IMG/VR virus record: IMGVR_UViG_3300009103_000007
Coordinates: 1 to 64,000 of that record
DNA: 64,000 nt
Strand: one strand, 5' to 3'
DNA from: a virus
This document shows positions 6,144 through 39,613 of the stretch, piece by piece. Position 1 is the first letter of the stretch. The number at the start of each line of letters is the position of its first letter. The notes under the pieces were generated by a model, which saw only the letters and a program-made list of their open reading frames with translations, had not been told where the DNA came from and did no database searches. Both the position numbers and the translations under genes were made by a program.

Positions 6144-6560
6144 ATGCCTAAATTTTATAGACAAAACAGAAAAAATATCAATCCAAGATATTTTTTGAAT
6201 GAGACTGCACAAAGAGAGGACGAAGCTGACTTAGCACAATGTGCTCAACATTTATTGCAGGGAGAAAAATGTTCCGGTCACTTCACAGATTTGGAATCTT
6301 TAAATGACCGAGGCATAAAGATGTTAGCTAATTTTTTTGATGACATAAGTAATGAAACGAATTGTGTCCTCACTACTTGTGAGGTAAAGGCTCTGTATCA
6401 TAGAATAGTCCAGATTTATGGAAAAGAATATGCTAGGAGTATGGCGTTTAAGCCAGAAATTTTTCAACATGAGGTGGAGGATATCAAAAACAGATACAAA
6501 GAAATAGATCAGATGTTTGATAATTCAATTCCAAGAGGCCTCGACCGAGGGGGAGAATAG
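6144..6560 (+). CDS. Hypothetical protein with class-II leader (MPKFYRQNRKNINPRYFLNE)
   Basis: N-terminus shared with the next gene at DNA and protein level. AAGGAG SD. Confidence 0.7.
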   Translation: MPKFYRQNRKNINPRYFLNETAQREDEADLAQCAQHLLQGEKCSGHFTDLESLNDRGIKMLANFFDDISNETNCVLTTCEVKALYHRIVQIYGKEYARSMAFKPEIFQHEVEDIKNRYKEIDQMFDNSIPRGLDRGGE

Positions 6561-6564
6561 AGAT

Positions 6565-7023
6565 ATGCCAAAAGTATACAAAAATAAAAAGAAGTTTATT
6601 GATCCAAGATATTTTCTGAATGAGACTGTAAATAGGGATTTGGAAGAAGCAGTAGTGGATCCCGGCCTTACAAAAGGTGGCCAATGGCCAGGAGTTAACC
6701 CACAAAAGAGGGCTTCTGATTTAGCTCAACAAGCTATGGATAGACAGACCTCTGGCGAAATACCCCCTTGGGAGGGTGATGGAACTCCAGATGTTCAGCT
6801 AGATCTTTTGACGGGAGAAGATATTGCAGTTCTGGAAAGTATATTACATCATTTTCGCAGAAGTAAGTATAGCGGCGGCGGAGACCGAGGCGACCGATTT
6901 GCGGAAATAATGGCCAAACTCGGAATAAAATTGAGTGATCACGAAAATATGTCTGACTGGTCAGAGGAAGATAAAGAACATGCTCGAAGAGCGGAATTAC
7001 ATAGAAAAAACTGGAATAGATAA
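6565..7023 (+). CDS. Hypothetical protein with class-II leader (MPKVYKNKKKFIDPRYFLNE)
   Basis: Start moved from 6517 to ATG 6565 by homology with 6144. Bodies of the two proteins look unrelated. Confidence 0.7.
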   Translation: MPKVYKNKKKFIDPRYFLNETVNRDLEEAVVDPGLTKGGQWPGVNPQKRASDLAQQAMDRQTSGEIPPWEGDGTPDVQLDLLTGEDIAVLESILHHFRRSKYSGGGDRGDRFAEIMAKLGIKLSDHENMSDWSEEDKEHARRAELHRKNWNR

Positions 7024-7036
7024 AGGAGGAGGCACT

Positions 7037-7132
7037 ATGAAAGGGTTACTACATAGAATAGCAAATTTATTCAATGCAAAGCATTGCTGCTGCTGCTGTG
7101 GCTGTTGTTCATGCACTAGCGGCTGCTGTTAA
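7037..7132 (+). CDS. 31-aa cysteine-rich microprotein
   Basis: MKGLLHRIANLFNAKHCCCCCGCCSCTSGCC*, 10 Cys. Strong AGGAGGAGG SD before ATG 7037. Confidence 0.7.
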   Translation: MKGLLHRIANLFNAKHCCCCCGCCSCTSGCC

Positions 7133-7135
7133 ATC

Positions 7136-7531
7136 ATGAAATTGATAATGGAAAACTGGAAACGATTCTTAAAAGAAGCTGATTGGCCGCCGCGGCACCA
7201 TACAGATTCATTCGGCCATGCTGGCACCTCTGGTTTAGGTGAAGATGAAGACGCGTCAGAATTGGCTCGCAAATTAATGGTAGTTATACGTACTCCAACG
7301 GATTTTTGCCAAGAAACCCCAGAAGACGAAGATTGTTTTAGTGCTGACTTTTTGGTAAATTTGTTGAAGAACAGAAATACGCCCGGATTTGATTGGCCCG
7401 AAGACGTCGAAACACCGGAAGAGTTGGCGTTATATTTGTGTTCTCGCGAAGGTCGTAATAGTGAGTGGAGTTGGGTTGCGGAGGAGGCAGTTCAAAAATA
7501 TCTTCAACTAGGTGAAGAAGGGAAGCTTTAG
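7136..7531 (+). CDS. Hypothetical protein with class-I leader MKLIMENW
   Basis: MKLIMENWKRFLKE-A. The last base of its TAG stop is G1 of the tmRNA. Confidence 0.7.
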   Translation: MKLIMENWKRFLKEADWPPRHHTDSFGHAGTSGLGEDEDASELARKLMVVIRTPTDFCQETPEDEDCFSADFLVNLLKNRNTPGFDWPEDVETPEELALYLCSREGRNSEWSWVAEEAVQKYLQLGEEGKL

Positions 7532-7835
7532 GGGGTGTAAAGGTATCGACAGGGTAAGGACAATAATGCGTGCAAGGCTGTGTGAGTGAGGTCACAGTAA
7601 AAACACTCAAAACTATAAATGCCAACGATGATGTTGAAATTTTCGAGGACTTTGCGCTTGCCGCATAGTTCTTGAGGAGGTTTTCCAGATACCTTCTTAA
7701 CCGAACATCTGGAATTGATATATTTGATAATTTATTTGCTAATTAACGGCTGTCTAGGGCCAGATCTAGACTAACCTTGTGAACGACGTATTGTTTGAGA
7801 TGTTCTGGACAGGAGTTCAATTCTCCTCACCTCCA
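7531..7835 (+). ncRNA. ssrA: tmRNA
   Basis: 5' GGGGGTG pairs with CACCTCC-A and includes the G3.U alanine wobble. T-arm AGGAG-TTCAATT-CTCCT. 5' GGTATCGAC motif. Internal tag ORF ends LAA. CCA is not encoded. Confidence 0.95.
7621..7668 (+). other. tmRNA tag reading frame ANDDVEIFEDFALAA*
   Basis: Resume codon GCC after ATAAAT. AND start and ALAA end are typical of ssrA tags. Confidence 0.9.
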
Positions 7836-7845
7836 AATCCACCCA

Positions 7846-7893
7846 AAACTTTGGGCGTTTCCACTGATGGAGATGTCCAAAGTTTTTTATTTT
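7846..7893 (+). terminator. Intrinsic terminator-like hairpin after tmRNA
   Basis: 18-bp stem (7846-7863/7868-7885) with three G.U pairs, CTGA loop, then a T-rich tract. Confidence 0.6.
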
Positions 7894-7912
7894 GCGGAGC
7901 ATTTGATAAATG

Positions 7913-7965
7913 AAAATAAACAATCCTTTCCTAACAACAAAGCAAAATAAAGGATTGTTTATTTT
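7913..7965. repeat. Perfect 17-bp inverted repeat, 19-nt spacer
   Basis: AAAATAAACAATCCTTT (7913-7929) and AAAGGATTGTTTATTTT (7949-7965). Confidence 0.85.
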
Positions 7966-8006
7966 GGAACAAAAGGTTTACACTTAGAGCCAAGTGGAGT
8001 AAATTT

Positions 8007-8058
8007 GTGACTCTCGCCACCTCCACCAACTTTTCTTATTTTGGAAACTATTTAATAT
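8007..8058 (+). repeat. Cassette repeat R1: tmRNA 3'-end fragment, T-tract, ACTATTTA motif
   Basis: GTGACTCTCGCCACCTCCACCAACTTTTCTTATTTTGGAAACTATTTAATAT. Colinear with R4 and R5; differences are transitions only. Confidence 0.95.
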
Positions 8059-8979
8059 ATGAAACTTATAATGGAAAACTGGAGAAAGTATTTAATAAAA
8101 GAAGAATTGTCCACACAAATATTTCCGGATTCGCCACTCGTCGCCATAAATCGCCCGGAAAAAATTCTTGCTCACTTTCCAAATGATGACCCCGAAGAAA
8201 TCGAAATACAAATCCGACTCCAGAATTATTTTAATGACTACAACAATCGCTTAGCACCCAGCCGGCTCAATATGATTCAGGAACTCAGCGTGCTTTTCAA
8301 CCGCTTCTTCGATGCAAGAAAGGACGTCGATGCTTCTAAGCCGAACTACCCGGGCACATATTCGAGAGAGTACGGTGATCCCCAATTTGGTCGACCATGG
8401 GAAGGAACCTTGGATATACATCCGAACCCGGAAGAGCGACCCGAGTATCGCCGAACAAGACGCCTCTACGGTTCTGAAGTTTTATGGGAATTTAGAAAAA
8501 GAGTAGAACACATAATCAGAAATTACAGCACCGGCACCAAGAATACATGGACCAGAACGTTGAGCTCGGGAAATACAACATTCAATATCTGGAAAGAAGT
8601 GAACGAATACGTCAACGAAGCCGCCAGGATAGCCAATGCCTGGGGAGGAGATCTTAAGTCAGTGTACCACGGCCCGCGGAGGGATCGCCAAGCTTGGAGG
8701 CCGGCCGCCGAAGAATACACAAAAGAAAAGTTAGCTGAATGGCAATCAAAACTGGAGCAACTGAAGATTGAAATTTATGAAAATCTTCAGACCGGATATC
8801 AGAAGTTACAAACAGAATTGGGGCCACTTATAAGAAAAGCACTAGAAGGACGCGTCGCTATGGCTATACCCACACCAGGCCAAGGAGAGATATCAATTTC
8901 GGATGAAGTTGGCGGTCTATCATTTCCCGATGATGCAATCGGAGGAGGAGTAGATTTTCAATTCGATCCAAAGAAATAG
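8059..8979 (+). CDS. Cassette 1: hypothetical protein with class-I leader
   Basis: MKLIMENWRKYLIKE-E. ATG 4 nt after ACTATTTA, no SD. Confidence 0.75.
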   Translation: MKLIMENWRKYLIKEELSTQIFPDSPLVAINRPEKILAHFPNDDPEEIEIQIRLQNYFNDYNNRLAPSRLNMIQELSVLFNRFFDARKDVDASKPNYPGTYSREYGDPQFGRPWEGTLDIHPNPEERPEYRRTRRLYGSEVLWEFRKRVEHIIRNYSTGTKNTWTRTLSSGNTTFNIWKEVNEYVNEAARIANAWGGDLKSVYHGPRRDRQAWRPAAEEYTKEKLAEWQSKLEQLKIEIYENLQTGYQKLQTELGPLIRKALEGRVAMAIPTPGQGEISISDEVGGLSFPDDAIGGGVDFQFDPKK

Positions 8980-8998
8980 TTTATTTGGGACTTTGATT

Positions 8999-9037
8999 GC
9001 CACCTCCACCAACTTTTCTCTTATTTGGAACTAATTA
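8999..9037 (+). repeat. Cassette repeat R2 (5'-truncated)
   Basis: GCCACCTCCACCAACTTTTCTCTTATTTGGAACTAATTA. A second ACTATTTA lies at 9048-9055. Confidence 0.9.
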
Positions 9038-9086
9038 CAATAAGGAGACTATTTAAAATATGAGAGAAAAAGGAGAAAATCTTTAA

Positions 9087-9323
9087 ATGAAAGTTACAAA
9101 GCAGTATTTAAGAAAGTTAATTAAAGAAGAGGTTGCTAAATCTCTGAATGAATCCGACTTGGCAACACCGGAGGCCCAACTTCAATACGTCAAAAGAGAG
9201 TTAGGTCAAATGCTATTTAATAAGGGCGCGCCCGCTTGGAGTCGACTCCCAGACCTCTGGGTCAAACTTGAAGATATCGCCACGAAGATAGGTGTAGAAC
9301 TACGAGGAAATTCAGCGCGCTAA
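9087..9323 (+). CDS. Cassette 2: small protein with class-III leader (MKVTKQYLRKLIKEE)
   Basis: 78 aa, AAGGAG SD, leader ends SLNE-S. Stop abuts R3. Confidence 0.7.
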   Translation: MKVTKQYLRKLIKEEVAKSLNESDLATPEAQLQYVKRELGQMLFNKGAPAWSRLPDLWVKLEDIATKIGVELRGNSAR

Positions 9324-9357
9324 ATAACTCCCGCCACCTCCACCAACTTTTTACTTT
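9324..9357 (+). repeat. Cassette repeat R3 (no late-promoter motif)
   Basis: ATAACTCCCGCCACCTCCACCAACTTTTTACTTT, running into a sigma70-like promoter. Confidence 0.9.
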
Positions 9358-9383
9358 ACATTTAGATAAAATTGTTTTATACT
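9355..9383 (+). promoter_or_regulatory. sigma70-like promoter
   Basis: TTTACA-17 nt-TATACT upstream of ORF 9418, AGGAG SD. Confidence 0.6.
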
Positions 9384-9417
9384 GTTCCTAACATTAAAAA
9401 AAGATAGGAGTATATAA

Positions 9418-9966
9418 ATGTTAAAGAAAGTAATTTTAGTAGCAACAGTAATGTTCGCAACTTTGGCACTCGCTGGGTACCCACAAGCAGAAGCCCACCC
9501 AACAGATAAAGAGGGTGTCAAGAAATGGACAAAGAGGTCAGGTCTCAGATTAGGTTATGTTTATGCCAATAAGGCTGATGAACCTGACGCAGATGGCGAG
9601 GAGTCAAAACTTAACAGCCCTCATATGTTCACGATGGGATTCGAACTACAACAATGTATGCCAGGGGGAGATTGGCTGGACGTTTTGTTTATTCAGAATG
9701 TGAGTATTACTGGCCTTGACCAGAGTGTCGTGTCACCATCGGCTCGGGTACTAGTTGGGTTTGAAATTGACAAATCAGTTCAATTAGCAGTCGGTCCTCA
9801 GTTATCATTCCACGACCCATCAGGAGAAGACAAGTATGTTCATCTTACAGCTGCCATAGGCTACACGATGGATGCCGGTGTATTTAGTGTACCGGTTCAC
9901 TTGAGCTTTGTGCCTGACGTCAACAATTATTGGGCAACAGCCATCACTACCGGTGTAAACTGGTAA
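9418..9966 (+). CDS. Cassette 3: secreted, probable outer-membrane beta-barrel protein
   Basis: Signal peptide (MLKKVILVATVMFATLALA, A-E-A site), alternating amphipathic beta segments, C-terminal aromatic residue (TGVNW). Confidence 0.6.
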   Translation: MLKKVILVATVMFATLALAGYPQAEAHPTDKEGVKKWTKRSGLRLGYVYANKADEPDADGEESKLNSPHMFTMGFELQQCMPGGDWLDVLFIQNVSITGLDQSVVSPSARVLVGFEIDKSVQLAVGPQLSFHDPSGEDKYVHLTAAIGYTMDAGVFSVPVHLSFVPDVNNYWATAITTGVNW

Positions 9967-9970
9967 ACAA

Positions 9971-10022
9971 ATAACTCCCGCCACCTCCACCAACTTTTCT
10001 TACTTTGGAGACTACTTAATAT
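9971..10022 (+). repeat. Cassette repeat R4
   Basis: ATAACTCCCGCCACCTCCACCAACTTTTCTTACTTTGGAGACTACTTAATAT, 48/52 identical to R5. Confidence 0.95.
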
Positions 10023-10340
10023 ATGAAACATAAACTTATAATGGAAAACTGGAAGAAGTTTTTAACAGAGGAACACTCAGATCAGCAGAAATACGAACTT
10101 GGCCGCCGTTGGTCACAACAGGAGATGGAAGACCAACATGACATCGCACCTGATTGGCTAGATGATGCATACGAAGTGACGGTCGCCATGCAAAAATCTG
10201 GAGAAATAGCCTCCGGTACACCACCAGAAGAATTAGCAAAAAAGTATTCTTCCGGAAATTTAGAATTAGAAAAATTTCTGATTGTTAACATAATGCTTCA
10301 TCGCCTAAGAGGTAATCTTGGAGACAGGGGTTTAGCATAA
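10023..10340 (+). CDS. Cassette 4: small protein with class-I leader
   Basis: MKHKLIMENWKKFLTE-E. Its TAA stop is part of R5. Confidence 0.7.
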   Translation: MKHKLIMENWKKFLTEEHSDQQKYELGRRWSQQEMEDQHDIAPDWLDDAYEVTVAMQKSGEIASGTPPEELAKKYSSGNLELEKFLIVNIMLHRLRGNLGDRGLA

Positions 10341-10388
10341 CCCCCGCCACCTCCACCAATTTTTCTTATTTTGGAGACTATTTAATAT
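10337..10388 (+). repeat. Cassette repeat R5
   Basis: ATAACCCCCGCCACCTCCACCAATTTTTCTTATTTTGGAGACTATTTAATAT. Confidence 0.95.
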
Positions 10389-11435
10389 ATGAAACTTATA
10401 ATGGAAAATTGGCGCCAGTTCATAATTGAGTCTGATTACCGCTCGCGCGCTGTTTATATGAAGGCTCGTGATAATACTAAATATGCTTATATTTTCGGCA
10501 CTGTCTCAGGCAAGGTCCTTGAGGCAAAAAATGAAACAGACATGTACTATGGCGCATCAATGCCAAAGCCCATAATGGCTTTAGCTCACATGAAGAAGTT
10601 CCGAAATGCGGAAGAGGGATCCCTCAAAAAACTGACAGACGAGGAGCTGAAAGGTTTGTTGAATTATGTTGGATACGGCGCCCACGCAAGCAATGCAGTA
10701 AATAAGAGAATTATAGCAAAGGTTTCAGATAAGGAAGCTACAGATTTCATCGCGAGTACTGGAATAGCTTCGAACATTTCCAGTGAAGAACATCCGATGG
10801 GTCAGGACGCCCCGCGGGACAAGTCAGCCGCTTACGAAAAAGATGTAAAGAAGAAGGGCCGTTATATCACGAAACCAAAAAAAATGACGATTAAGCGCGG
10901 ATCCTTCCGGAACAAACAAACTCCACTGCAATTTTTCAATTTTTTAACATTTTTGTATAAAACTCGTAAAATGTTTTCAACTCAATCTCACGCGGATCCT
11001 CAAATTAATGAATTTAATAAAATTATGAGTATTATGAGGAGAGATTATTTTGGGGTAAATAAGCGCGACCGAGAAAATCAGGGGTTTGAGTTTATAAAGA
11101 AGTATTTAAACCACAAAGGCATAAAGGTATCTAAAGTGTATGGCAAAGGCGGCCGCGCCGCAGGTTCACTAAACTATGGCATCATAATAGATGATAAATG
11201 GATATTCTCAATATATACAGACTTTACAGCCGGCGCATGGAAACCTAAAAAAACCCACGAAAAAGATAAGTCGAAAAGAAGTCACTGGGCAACACACTCC
11301 GGACCAACAAGCCGAAGAAAACCCAGAAACAAATATGTCAAGATTATAAAAATAGGAGGAGAAAGATGGGAAGTGGGGGAAAGCAAGCTCCGATTGGTAG
11401 AGATTATAGCCAAAGTAATGAGTCGAAACACATGA
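10389..11435 (+). CDS. Serine beta-lactamase/PBP-fold protein with class-I leader
   Basis: SxxK (ASMPK), a SN motif near the SxN position (HASNAVN), KGG at the KTG position, NKQTP. Leader MKLIMENWRQFIIE-S. Confidence 0.6.
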   Translation: MKLIMENWRQFIIESDYRSRAVYMKARDNTKYAYIFGTVSGKVLEAKNETDMYYGASMPKPIMALAHMKKFRNAEEGSLKKLTDEELKGLLNYVGYGAHASNAVNKRIIAKVSDKEATDFIASTGIASNISSEEHPMGQDAPRDKSAAYEKDVKKKGRYITKPKKMTIKRGSFRNKQTPLQFFNFLTFLYKTRKMFSTQSHADPQINEFNKIMSIMRRDYFGVNKRDRENQGFEFIKKYLNHKGIKVSKVYGKGGRAAGSLNYGIIIDDKWIFSIYTDFTAGAWKPKKTHEKDKSKRSHWATHSGPTSRRKPRNKYVKIIKIGGERWEVGESKLRLVEIIAKVMSRNT

Positions 11436-12055
11436 AGGGTCCAACCATCAAAGAAGTGTCGGGCGGGTGGATTGGTTATTATATATGGAGAATACATAGA
11501 GACTATACAAAAATTGAGAAGTTAGCTGAAGAGAATTATAGCACGTCTCACTTACCTCAAAATGTGAGTAAAAGAAACCCCTCTGAACAAAGGGAATTCC
11601 GCGATATTATAGATTATAAAAGAGAAGCTTTCAGGCATATCTTGGCTGCAGCTTGGTTTGAATATCATTATTCACTATTACCCACTCGCGCCCTCGGCAT
11701 TGCAAAAGAGAAAGTAGACTTATTAAAGCAGAAAATTAAAGAATTTTTAGGAAAAAAATCAAACAGAAAAAGATTTAAACGCTTACAAGAGATGGATTTG
11801 GCAAATAATGAAGCTGGCCTTAGTCTGGCGAAAAGCATTCTCGATTTGGGCGCCAATCGTAGGACGTTTAGCTTGCCTGACGTGGCCCTCATGGTTCATG
11901 GTTTAATTGAGAAAGGTGAGTTCTATGTTGCAGGTGGTAAAATGAAATATAATGCTCTGGTCGCGTGGAGGGCCCAACAAAAGCGCATCAAAATGACAGT
12001 TAGCGGCGACAAAAACCCAAGAGAAACTGGAATTATAAAGAAAAAAAAGAATTAA
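11432..12055 (+). CDS. Hypothetical protein with AFRH...MDLxNNxxG motif (DUF6973-like)
   Basis: EAFRHIL and EMDLANNEAG. Start placed at the ATGA overlap with the upstream stop. Confidence 0.5.
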   Translation: MKGPTIKEVSGGWIGYYIWRIHRDYTKIEKLAEENYSTSHLPQNVSKRNPSEQREFRDIIDYKREAFRHILAAAWFEYHYSLLPTRALGIAKEKVDLLKQKIKEFLGKKSNRKRFKRLQEMDLANNEAGLSLAKSILDLGANRRTFSLPDVALMVHGLIEKGEFYVAGGKMKYNALVAWRAQQKRIKMTVSGDKNPRETGIIKKKKN

Positions 12056-12067
12056 TGGCTATAGATT

Positions 12068-13132
12068 ATGAGTAATGTTCAAGATATGAAAAGTGTTATG
12101 AAAGGCTGGAGAGGGTACTTGAATGAGGCTTTTTATACTGTTCGCCGCGGCGACAATCTGGCCAAGATAGTTAAGTTTATAAACTCTCAATTCGAAGATG
12201 AAAATCTTGATGTTGAGGGGCTACTAAAGCTCAACCCACAAATAAAAAACAAAAATAAAATATATCCCGGCCAGAAAATCAGAGTCACTCGAAAAGACGC
12301 AGCAGGGAAGTTGGGGAAATATGAAAAAGATGAAGCTTATCAAGATAAGTCTGCAGAACTGGCCCAACATTTGGACAACCATGTGGACGAAATCTGGAAC
12401 CGCTCAATATCAACAGCCATTCATTTAGTATCTAAATACGCCTCACCCAATATTTCTGCGTTAACAAAGTGGGTTTCAACTGCTAGAGCGTCAAATCAGA
12501 TACAAGTAGATTATGAGGCCGCATTACCTGCCGATCGTTATGGTGAATGGATTTCAGGAAACAGGATCGGGAAATATCAATTGAAAGGGGCCAGTGAGAC
12601 TAATCCTCGTATGAGGGTTAACAAACTTTACTTTACGGGGGTGGTTGAGAAGATAATTTGGGCCATTGCTAATAATAATATGTTTGTTGAAATAACAGAT
12701 GTGATTAAAAAAGGAATAATAGATTTTATAGTGAATACAGTGGGGTATATACTATCTTTTACAATTGTTCACGAACTGACACATGCTGTACATAACCTGA
12801 AGTTAATACTTTATCTTAATAAACTGTCGACTTCCAAACGTATTAGTACGCTTGAGGGTATGAAAACGCCATCATTCGTTGCGCGGATGGAACTCGATTG
12901 TATTAAAAATGAAAAAGTTTTTTTAAGAAAGGCAGAACGGTACCGCTTTCAAATTATTGAAGACCTAAAGAATTGGATTGGCAAGTCTGAGACTGTCGCG
13001 CTCACCACAAAGGATCCTAAAGCATTAGAAAAAATGATGGCAACTCTTGCGCAGGAAATCGAAAAAGAAATAAAAAATGTAATGAGCTATAAACACGAAC
13101 AATTAAGTATATTGAAAAAGGAAGAAATTTAA
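12068..13132 (+). CDS. LysM-domain protein with HExxH motif and leader
   Basis: YTVRRGDNL...LNPQI...IYPGQKI (LysM), VHELTH, leader MKSVMKGWRGYLNE-A. Confidence 0.75.
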   Translation: MSNVQDMKSVMKGWRGYLNEAFYTVRRGDNLAKIVKFINSQFEDENLDVEGLLKLNPQIKNKNKIYPGQKIRVTRKDAAGKLGKYEKDEAYQDKSAELAQHLDNHVDEIWNRSISTAIHLVSKYASPNISALTKWVSTARASNQIQVDYEAALPADRYGEWISGNRIGKYQLKGASETNPRMRVNKLYFTGVVEKIIWAIANNNMFVEITDVIKKGIIDFIVNTVGYILSFTIVHELTHAVHNLKLILYLNKLSTSKRISTLEGMKTPSFVARMELDCIKNEKVFLRKAERYRFQIIEDLKNWIGKSETVALTTKDPKALEKMMATLAQEIEKEIKNVMSYKHEQLSILKKEEI

Positions 13133-38643: not shown

Positions 38644-38949
38644 ATGTGGTTTACGTTGTTCGTGGTAAGTTTGGTGATTAATGTATTTGGCATCATGTAT
38701 GTGAGGTGGCTCTTGAAAACGCTGTCAAGTATAGGGGAGGACTTAGATGCTTTGAAGATGGCCATGAGTGAATACGTCGGCCATGTCAAATCAGTATATG
38801 AGCTAGAGATGTTCTATGGAGATCAGACGCTGAAATCTTTGATGGACCATGGTCGCGACCTAATTGGCAAGATAGAAGATGTGGATTTTGTTTTAAATTT
38901 AGAGGAGGAAATAGAGGTAGATGGCGAGAAAGAAACGGAAGAAGAATAA
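38644..38949 (+). CDS. Hypothetical membrane-anchored protein
   Basis: N-terminal hydrophobic helix, acidic tail. Confidence 0.6.
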   Translation: MWFTLFVVSLVINVFGIMYVRWLLKTLSSIGEDLDALKMAMSEYVGHVKSVYELEMFYGDQTLKSLMDHGRDLIGKIEDVDFVLNLEEEIEVDGEKETEEE

Positions 38950-39613
38950 TTATTTCACAAAAGTTCATGAAGACGCAATTGTAAGGTATTCAAAGACGGT
39001 TTGCCTGAAAGAGCGGACAGAATTGTATGTCTCTTTTATAGAGCCAGCGTTGTCGGAAATGGTAAATAAGATTATTTTTACTTACAAATTTAACACATTA
39101 CCAAATATAGATTCGTTGCGTGAAGATTGTAAAATTTGGCTGACAACCATATTAGACAAATATGATCAATCTAAGGGCTCGAAAGCATTTTCTTATTTTT
39201 CAGTTGTAACTAAAAATTGGTTTATTCACAAAGTTAAGAAAAATTCTAAAAAAGTAAAAAAAGAAGTCTCATACGAGAATCTCGTTGAGAACGGCGGAGC
39301 GCATATTCTTGGCACATCTGACGATAAAATAGTGCCATATACAGAACAAAGAATTGAAAATGAGTTTTGGAACTCTTTATTAACGCATCTTGACAGGTGG
39401 GATACGGGTAATCTTAAGCAAAATGAAAAAAATGTTTTACAAGGTGTGAAAATATTGCTACACAACGTTGATGATATAGATATTTTTAATAAAAAGGCGG
39501 TGTACTTGTATCTTAGAGAATTAACTGGCTTGAACACTAAGCAGGTAGTAAACAATTTAAACAAACTACGTGAAAAATATAGAATATTCAAGACAAGGTG
39601 GGATAGGGAATAA
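38921..39613 (+). CDS. Phage sigma-factor-like protein (candidate late sigma)
   Basis: KYDQSKGSKAFSYF resembles sigma region 2.3 and gp55-like proteins. Sits at the head of the structural module. Confidence 0.6.
   Translation: MARKKRKKNNYFTKVHEDAIVRYSKTVCLKERTELYVSFIEPALSEMVNKIIFTYKFNTLPNIDSLREDCKIWLTTILDKYDQSKGSKAFSYFSVVTKNWFIHKVKKNSKKVKKEVSYENLVENGGAHILGTSDDKIVPYTEQRIENEFWNSLLTHLDRWDTGNLKQNEKNVLQGVKILLHNVDDIDIFNKKAVYLYLRELTGLNTKQVVNNLNKLREKYRIFKTRWDRE

Follow-up and report, generated by a model that had tools for sequence, protein, structure and literature searches.

The window analysed here is a stretch of 64,000 nt of viral DNA, positions 1 to 64,000 of the IMG/VR virus record IMGVR_UViG_3300009103_000007 (G000; 121,041 bp, linear, ~67% complete). 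It contains an array of five small gene cassettes that lies 3′ of a transfer-messenger RNA (tmRNA) gene, and each cassette is preceded by a repeat that begins with a copy of a tmRNA 3′ end. All genes of the record are on one strand and include those for a T4 gp20-type portal, a gp21-type prohead protease (PF03420, 106 bits; phrog_207, E 2e-55), a major head protein, a large terminase, a tail sheath and a baseplate wedge. A protein encoded at 38921-39613 resembles late sigma factors, although the match is weak. The phage is a lytic T4-like myovirus from marine samples. The array is a real, lineage-wide cassette system, and comparison with related genomes and contigs indicates that cassettes are gained, lost and reordered at the repeats. 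We call the whole repeated unit a module and its tmRNA-derived part the tail. The features of the locus, with protein lengths in amino acids (aa), are as follows:

7531..7835, + strand: one-piece tmRNA (ARAGORN; Rfam, 107 bits), tag ANDDVEIFEDFALAA
7836..8009, + strand: inserted hairpin element of 174 nt, directly after the discriminator A, starting AATCCAC
8010..8082, + strand: module R1, with tail ACTCTCGCCACCTCCACCA (8010-8028), T-rich spacer, ACTATTTA (8047-8054), and ATG plus 8 leader codons (8059-8082)
8059..8979, + strand: cassette gene 1, 306 aa, MKLIMENW leader, no family match
8999..9058, + strand: module R2, with a tail cut at its 5′ side and beginning GCCACC, two ACTAnTTA motifs (9030, 9048), and then an 8-codon upstream open reading frame (ORF; 9061-9087)
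9087..9323, + strand: cassette gene 2, 78 aa, second leader type MKVTKQYLRKLIKEE
9327..9383, + strand: module R3, with a tail (9327-9345) joined to a sigma70-like TTTACA-17-TATACT (9355-9383) in place of ACTAnTTA
9418..9966, + strand: cassette gene 3, 182 aa, signal peptide
9974..10046, + strand: module R4, with tail (9974-9992), spacer, ACTACTTA at 10011, and ATG plus leader MKHKLIMENW
10023..10340, + strand: cassette gene 4, 105 aa, leader-bearing, 92% identical to its orthologue in the relative G001
10340..10412, + strand: module R5, with tail ACCCCCGCCACCTCCACCA (10340-10358), spacer, ACTATTTA at 10377, and ATG plus leader
10389..11435, + strand: cassette gene 5, 348 aa, leader-bearing, SMPK motif

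The core of the repeat, GCCACCTCCACCAA, occurs in five exact copies on the + strand 3′ of the tmRNA (8016, 8999, 9333, 9980 and 10346), and no further copy was found in the whole 121,041-bp record. Shuffles gave a mean of 0.22 copies, and five copies were reached in 0 of 100. Modules R1, R4 and R5 can be aligned colinearly over ~50 nt with 4 differing positions, all of which are transitions, and the stop codon upstream of each core ends 5-20 nt 5′ of it. From 5′ to 3′ the tail consists of a T-loop remnant, the 3′ strand of the T-stem, the 3′ strand of the acceptor stem and ACCA; it reads AACTCCCGCCACCTCCACCA in R3 and R4, while the Rfam tmRNA consensus 3′ end is AuUCCCgCCacCUCCACCA. Copies of ACTAnTTA are found at 8047, 9030, 9048, 10011 and 10377, and the repeated homology reaches ~65 nt past the tmRNA-derived part, into the spacer and leader. 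The cassette units measure 330-980 bp and carry no recombination genes. The first-pass annotation of this DNA had called five repeats 3′ of the tmRNA, transitions as the sole differences among three of them, stop codons close to the next repeat together with the 8-codon upstream ORF, an origin from tmRNA 3′ ends, and a promoter-like motif (ACTAnTTA) with a fusion leader, and all of these features are borne out. A homology confined to an att core is not supported, given the extension past the tmRNA-derived part.

No conserved secondary structure was detected in the five units (fold z-scores of -1.7 to +0.9), and neither inverted repeats nor terminator-like sites were found within the modules. 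Even at a permissive threshold, Rfam matched the tmRNA itself and none of the tail fragments. Three candidate elements were considered and discarded. An anti-Shine-Dalgarno-like hairpin (CUCCA/UGGAG, formed between the tail and a spacer GGAG) amounts to no more than 5 bp and is absent from R1 and from several relatives. Read as a sigma70 promoter, the spacer lacks a -35 element, and its TATAAT lies within the leader codons, so that transcripts would start past the ATG; R3 alone has a sigma70-type match, with none in R1, R2, R4 or R5. A resemblance of TTTTCTTAT to a MotA box was set aside for want of the conserved G.

A scan of IMG/VR with the repeat and its T-tract returned 14 loci in 11 records, several of them ~190 kb long. 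In six relatives (G003-G006, G008 and G010), the phage-encoded tmRNA has this pattern as its true 3′ end; it ends in ...GGACGCGGGTTCGACTCCCGCCACCTCCACCA and is followed by ACTTTTCTTATTTTGGAGACTAYTTA, an ATG and often the MKLIMENW leader. Since the true ends share the spacer, motif and leader, the repeat corresponds to a copied tmRNA tail together with the spacer that follows and the start of the next gene. The alignments thus place its origin in the lineage's own tmRNA locus rather than in a foreign or host allele. The first-pass annotation had attributed the repeat to another ssrA allele, donor or host, and here the roles turn out to be reversed: by sequence, the resident tmRNA of the window is the deviant one, and the repeat has the lineage's usual tmRNA end. 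The resident T arm is AGGAG/CTCCT, with compensating changes, as against GCGGG/CCCGC in the lineage, and the resident gene has no encoded CCA, ending instead in CACCTCCA (a 'type 2' end) followed by AATCCAC. Type 2 ends were also seen in other contigs, both as true ends and as fragments. The host cannot be inferred from the tail, because the tail equals the general bacterial tmRNA consensus.

The complete genome of G001 (IMGVR_UViG_3300038301_000548; 190,698 bp) contains seven tail fragments, five of type 1 and two of type 2, and no tmRNA gene was found in it by Rfam or ARAGORN, which makes the tmRNA dispensable in this lineage. A scan of metagenomes added 113 stretches, all of them marine. 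Over all fetched DNA, 150 distinct copies with full flanks were obtained, comprising 49 true tmRNA ends and 101 fragments, with 1-7 tail copies per genome. ACTAnTTA lies 3′ of 39 of the 49 true ends and 78 of the 101 fragments, a leader gene follows 25 and 44 of them, respectively, and after four true ends and six fragments there is a consensus sigma70 promoter, which in most cases precedes an IscA-like gene. Every downstream context of the true ends is therefore also found after fragments. When modules were instead collected by promoter and leader, 79 were obtained: 23 at true tmRNA ends, 12 without a recognisable tail and 12 with a tail eroded at its 5′ side. Most fragments have their 5′ edge in the T loop, and for 29 of 76 exactly 5 nt separate the end of the upstream stop from GCCACC (T[AG]A/CTCCC). 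These edges are not uniform, as GGTTCGACT.. is kept in some copies and others begin only at GCCACC.

The same genes occur in different arrangements among relatives. The order in the window is R1-306aa-R2-78aa-R3-OMP-like-R4-105aa-R5-348aa (OMP, outer-membrane protein), while that in G001, the closest relative for the cassette genes (protein identities of 96% and 92%), is R-OMP-like-R-97aa-R-220aa-(split tail)-105aa-R-342aa. In G009, the OMP-like gene is followed by a repeat and then by a different leader gene. Aligned with G001, the window shows blocks of DNA homology whose ends lie inside modules. The block at 9322-10002 spans R3, the OMP-like gene and R4, and that at 9986-10412 runs from within R4 through the 105-aa gene and R5 to the leader, ending exactly after the leader codons. 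IscU- and IscA-like genes likewise change order and neighbours around the tails in G003, G005, G006, G008 and G010. Three pairs of contigs, with aligned flanks that are 91-99% identical, differ by whole module-flanked units:

E1: long form in L126, short form in G002; extra 726 bp (two leader genes), overlapping homology of 69 nt
E2: long form in L167, short form in L100; extra 467 bp, overlapping homology of 48 nt
E3: long form in L066, short form in G010; extra 2268 bp, overlapping homology of 45 nt

The long form of E1 is present in contigs of several samples (L017, L018 and L031). Three further indels between near-identical contigs (E4-E6) are not flanked by modules: E4 begins with a truncated tail and has microhomology, and E5 and E6 are unrelated to tails. 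Judged from these sequence comparisons, cassettes have been gained, lost and reordered at modules, and the earlier proposal of small cassettes that turn over with breakpoints in the repeat is upheld by both the contig pairs and the G001 alignment.

Crossovers were placed by aligning the one module that each short form retains against the two found in its long form. In E1 the crossover falls in CTTTTCT just 3′ of the tail, and the short form combines the whole left tail with the right spacer; a crossover in the T loop is excluded for this event because the right tail is a distinct variant. The crossover of E2 lies inside TTCGA..CCACCA, 5′ of the E1 window, and that of E3 in GCCACC..CTT. As the E1 and E2 windows do not overlap, there is no single fixed crossover site, and the breakpoints at the leader end argue likewise. 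A search for Phage_integrase (PF00589) and Resolvase domains found none in G000, in the complete genomes of G001, G002 and G005 (100%) or in G004 (96%); other recombinase families and the unknown host were not searched. Genes for a RecA/UvsX-type recombinase were detected in G001 (125 bits) and G005 (121 bits). The integrase and att chemistry at the T loop that had been suggested for this array, and the fixed crossover site that it implied, are accordingly not supported. T4-type phages recombine short homologies efficiently, and the model for their promoter-early stem-loop (PeSL) cassettes is built on this capacity. We infer that the array is shuffled in a PeSL-like manner by homologous recombination. 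The tail may simply serve as homology, which would also restore the tmRNA upon exchange with a true end.

Two further components of the module concern expression and the fate of the product. G000 contains the motif [AT]CTAnTTA in 39 copies on the + strand and 11 on the - strand, and the stricter ACTA[CT]TTA in 19 and 2 copies, respectively. Copies are mostly intergenic, lie 4-7 nt before the ATG of several genes that lack a Shine-Dalgarno sequence, and are also found upstream of the baseplate wedge, tail sheath and adaptor-like genes. Within the window the excess is modest (10 against 4.5 expected; 10 was reached in 1 of 100 shuffles). ACTAnTTA is probably a late promoter, which would produce mRNAs with little or no leader.

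The MKLIMENW leader heads three of the five array genes. It is also carried, without a tail, by a gene at 7136 and, in divergent forms, by genes at 12068 and 15510. The likeness between the leader proteins of the window ends after 13-25 residues, and their bodies are unrelated. Among the contigs sampled, 107 distinct genes start with MKLIME.W. Synonymous sites in the leader are conserved in these genes relative to the whole genome (ATA, 94% vs 44%; CTT, 69% vs 23%; GAA, 98% vs 61%), which fits exchange or constraint at the DNA level. The leaders mostly end in (L/I)-x-E, with FLKE, YLIKE, FLTE, FIIE and YLNE as examples. The major head protein reads ...ELLRE/AS..., with the slash at the position that matches the cleavage site of T4 gp23, which follows L-T-E. 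The internal proteins of T4 are diverse and share only a capsid-targeting sequence (PMC3012670). By analogy, the leader could plausibly act as a signal for targeting and cleavage. In R3, by contrast, the tail accompanies a sigma70-type promoter and a leader-free gene for a signal-peptide protein.

The explanation that we favour, and regard as rather probable when taken as a whole, combines a tmRNA-derived module, shuffling by homologous recombination, a late promoter and a targeting leader. The region 3′ of the tmRNA would be a hyperplastic region of a lytic marine T4-like phage. Its portable module of ~60-90 bp would comprise the terminal ~20 nt of the tmRNA gene (T loop through CCA), a T-rich spacer of ~40 nt that holds ACTAnTTA and, mostly, 8 leader codons. 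Genes between two modules could be excised, inserted, swapped or reordered by the phage's homologous recombination acting on the modules, both within one genome and between co-infecting relatives, a behaviour demonstrated for PeSLs, the promoter-terminator modules of T4-type coliphages. As the tmRNA tail forms the start of the module, recombination with a true tmRNA end would rebuild an intact tmRNA. A gene landing behind a module would gain late expression, and a crossover at the leader would also add an N-terminal peptide ending in (L/I)-x-E. This peptide would probably act like the sequence that targets T4 internal proteins to the capsid and be removed by the gp21-type prohead protease. A more far-reaching version can be put forward only tentatively, as we think it possible but doubtful. 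Here the tmRNA locus would be an integrase-free platform for gene capture that supplies a late promoter, a leaderless start and a cleavable capsid-targeting peptide in one step; the array would hold fast-exchanging proteins that are packed into the head and injected, such as cell-wall enzymes or counter-defence factors, and the tail would be a landing pad that repairs the tmRNA.

Among known systems, the closest likeness is to the PeSL elements, which T4-type phages carry as mobile cassettes with a regulatory role (Arbiol et al., 2010, PMC2839356; Comeau et al., 2014, PMC4122927). PeSLs and the module alike are short intergenic repeats in T4-like hyperplastic regions that run from an upstream stop codon to a downstream start codon, flank small genes of unknown function and have no dedicated recombinase. 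In both, indels and replacements between close relatives break within the motif, as observed here for E1-E3 and for the window and G001. The module differs from PeSLs in its mostly other, probably late, promoter, its copy of a tmRNA 3′ end, its coding leader and its anchorage at the tmRNA locus. Mini-circles, which arise by exchange between neighbouring motifs, have been shown for PeSLs.

The leader genes recall the internal-protein genes of T4 (IPI-III and Alt), which occupy hypervariable loci of T-even phages (PMC3012670). In both cases, unrelated proteins share a short N-terminal peptide ending in (L/I)-x-E, a gp21-type protease is present, and the genes lie in a variable region near small-RNA genes and lysis-type enzymes. 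The leader genes differ in the sequence of the peptide (MKLIMENWRxFLxE) and in being far more numerous (107 distinct genes in the contigs sampled), and their packaging and cleavage are putative. We know of no T4 counterpart for a leader linked to a tmRNA-tail repeat.

Tandem islands at ssrA and tRNA genes, as in Dehalococcoides (PMC3146451) and in Islander (PMC4383910), resemble the array in their direct repeats of the last ~20 nt, located 3′ of a tmRNA, their variable region and their edges in the T loop. Such islands are kilobases long, reside in bacterial chromosomes and encode integrases (the serine recombinase DsiB in Dehalococcoides), whereas the array consists of single genes in a lytic phage with no integrase found, a variable crossover, and a repeat that continues into a promoter and leader. 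With integrons the array shares single-gene cassettes in one orientation, a recurring site between them and a fixed anchor adjoining the array. It departs from them in that no IntI (PF00589) was found in G000, G001, G002, G004 or G005, there is no folded attC, and each cassette has its own promoter instead of one Pc. Exchange in the array probably occurs by homologous recombination, unlike in integrons, and the array is better likened to PeSL modules and the T4 internal-protein locus than to an integron. Our literature searches turned up no account of lytic phages with tmRNA-tail modules. Melnitz, a marine phage in culture (PMC9004378), has a tmRNA of a different, two-piece type and does not serve as a close model.

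We now consider very unlikely the reading that was offered at first, in which a site-specific recombinase inserts and excises units at the T loop of the tmRNA, in the manner of an integron or by island accretion, and displaces 3′ fragments. It would account for fragments that extend from the T loop to CCA, as these are exactly what integration into a tRNA or tmRNA gene displaces, and for 5′ edges that mostly fall within the T loop, the preceding stop codon often coinciding with CGA. Against this stand the negative search for a tyrosine or serine recombinase in the record and four near-complete relatives, the lytic T4-like nature of the phages, the small units without recombination genes and the homology that continues ~65 nt beyond the tmRNA end. 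Furthermore, crossover windows vary from event to event, with E1 excluding the T loop and some breakpoints at the leader end, the 5′ edges range from GGTTCGACT.. to GCCACC.., and the complete G001 has fragments without a tmRNA target. A simpler account, that one gene was duplicated in tandem with its upstream region and the copies diverged, so that the units are paralogues, is scarcely credible. Three of the five genes do share their first 8-14 residues and the 50 nt upstream, but beyond residues 13-25 the protein bodies are unrelated, and two units hold genes of other kinds (the signal-peptide protein, and the 78-aa protein with its other leader). Relatives carry the same bodies in other orders and with other neighbours, and whole cassettes are present or absent between contigs that are 91-99% identical.

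The possibility that the tail is kept as a signal in its own right, with shuffling as a by-product, is improbable. The tail could be a site for RNA processing or 3′-end formation borrowed from tmRNA maturation, with cleavage near CCA/ACUUUU between cistrons, or a C-rich termination or insulator element. Consistent with this, it is the most invariant part of the module, while the promoter downstream may be late-type, sigma70-type or absent; upstream stops abut the tail as if at the edge of a constrained sequence, and the fragments of G001 are intact with no tmRNA to copy from. Conserved structure and Rfam matches on the fragments are both lacking, however, and the tail supplies only the 3′ strands of tRNA-like helices, so that structure-specific tRNA or tmRNA enzymes would have nothing to recognise. 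The 12 of 79 promoter-and-leader modules that are tail-less, together with the 12 that are 5′-eroded, also make the tail dispensable. A number of points weigh against the favoured reading, the shuffling of tmRNA-derived modules by homologous recombination. No other part of the module is as constant as the tail, which pairs with differing downstream elements and may have a function of its own. The regularity of the T-loop edges is also the trace expected of a T-loop-specific recombinase; descent from a few founder fragments, together with genome compaction, could potentially explain it, although this is not proven. PeSLs have a sigma70 early promoter and a terminator stem-loop, whereas the module has no stem-loop and a sigma70 promoter in R3 only. 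We infer recombination from its end products alone, and the late-promoter assignment comes from position and strand bias. The modules flanking E2 and E3 have 22-23 nt of identity in common, as against only 7 nt in E1, so that E2 and E3 could conceivably be assembly artefacts. The contigs were fished with the tail pattern, which biases the counts towards intact tails.

The array shows how accessory genes turn over in abundant uncultured ocean phages; the unit of exchange is sharply defined, and metagenomes contain natural variants that differ by gain or loss. With it, the PeSL idea extends to the end of a structural-RNA gene, to late instead of early expression and to a coding leader; recombination would hand a gene its regulation and, probably, its destination in the virion. 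It also cautions that arrays of tRNA or tmRNA 3′ fragments do not by themselves prove that an integrase has acted. Should the leader be a capsid-targeting signal, the 100-plus genes that carry it would form a catalogue of candidate injected effectors, and the module would be a natural tool for loading proteins into phage heads.

Within the hairpin element between the resident tmRNA and R1, a 19-bp stem that resembles a terminator (7845-7886) is followed by a perfect inverted repeat of 17 nt (7913-7965). In G001, a tail fragment is interrupted between two TCCA tetramers by a shortened homologue of the element; homologous sites in this genome were located in L021 (the reverse complement of 155500-168500) at ~8619-8680 and 6594. 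In L059, the insertion is only 6 nt long (AATCCA). The element resembles a small, independent insertion directed at the CCA position. Variation in the tmRNA itself was also noted in G002, where the gene (L023 3967-4420, equal to G002:80966-81419) measures ~454 nt compared with ~305 nt in other relatives. It has an aberrant T loop (GCGGG AGTCGGAG CCCGC), was missed by ARAGORN and scores 96.7 bits with Rfam. It may carry an insertion.

Pfam and PHROGs assigned no family to the five cassette proteins, and BLASTN of positions 7000-13000 against 50,697 GenBank phage records gave no match. Cassette gene 3 probably encodes an outer-membrane beta-barrel-like protein, which is offered as a lead only. 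Homologues of this gene (74-80% identity) are located directly after the 3′ end of a tRNA gene in other marine phage lineages (L043-L048), without the tmRNA tail. The 348-aa product of cassette gene 5 looks like a serine hydrolase of the class A beta-lactamase/DD-peptidase type, which is again a lead (SMPK motif; Atlas feature score 0.94, TM 0.5-0.57). Among the leader-family genes outside the repeat array are the following:

7136..7531, + strand: leader gene 5′ of the tmRNA, starting MKLIMENWKRFLKE, without a tail repeat; its TAG stop overlaps tmRNA base 1
12068..13132, + strand: LysM protein with a divergent leader, MKSVMKGWRGYLNE, without a tail

The TAG of the former spans 7529-7531 and thus ends on the first base of the tmRNA, with which the gene is probably co-transcribed. 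Just 5′ of this gene, a small ORF at 7038-7132 has a strong Shine-Dalgarno sequence (AAGGAGGAGG) and encodes a 31-aa peptide that ends in a run of cysteines (HCCCCCGCCSCTSGCC). The locus is rich in cell-wall enzymes, with the LysM protein (12068), an M15 peptidase (13132) and an endolysin-like protein (5506).

A 229-aa ORF without a leader, at 11366-12055, shares 70 nt with the 3′ end of the 348-aa gene. The homologous gene of G005 (L022 8594-9241) starts with MKLIMENWRNYL, so that the same gene body occurs with and without a leader. A second shared N terminus, MPKFYRQNKKxIDPRYFLNE, was observed on otherwise different proteins in the window (6144-6560 and 6565-7023) and in L022, L023, L025 and L028. 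It again ends in L-N-E, and the E6 indel adds one such gene just 5′ of the tmRNA.

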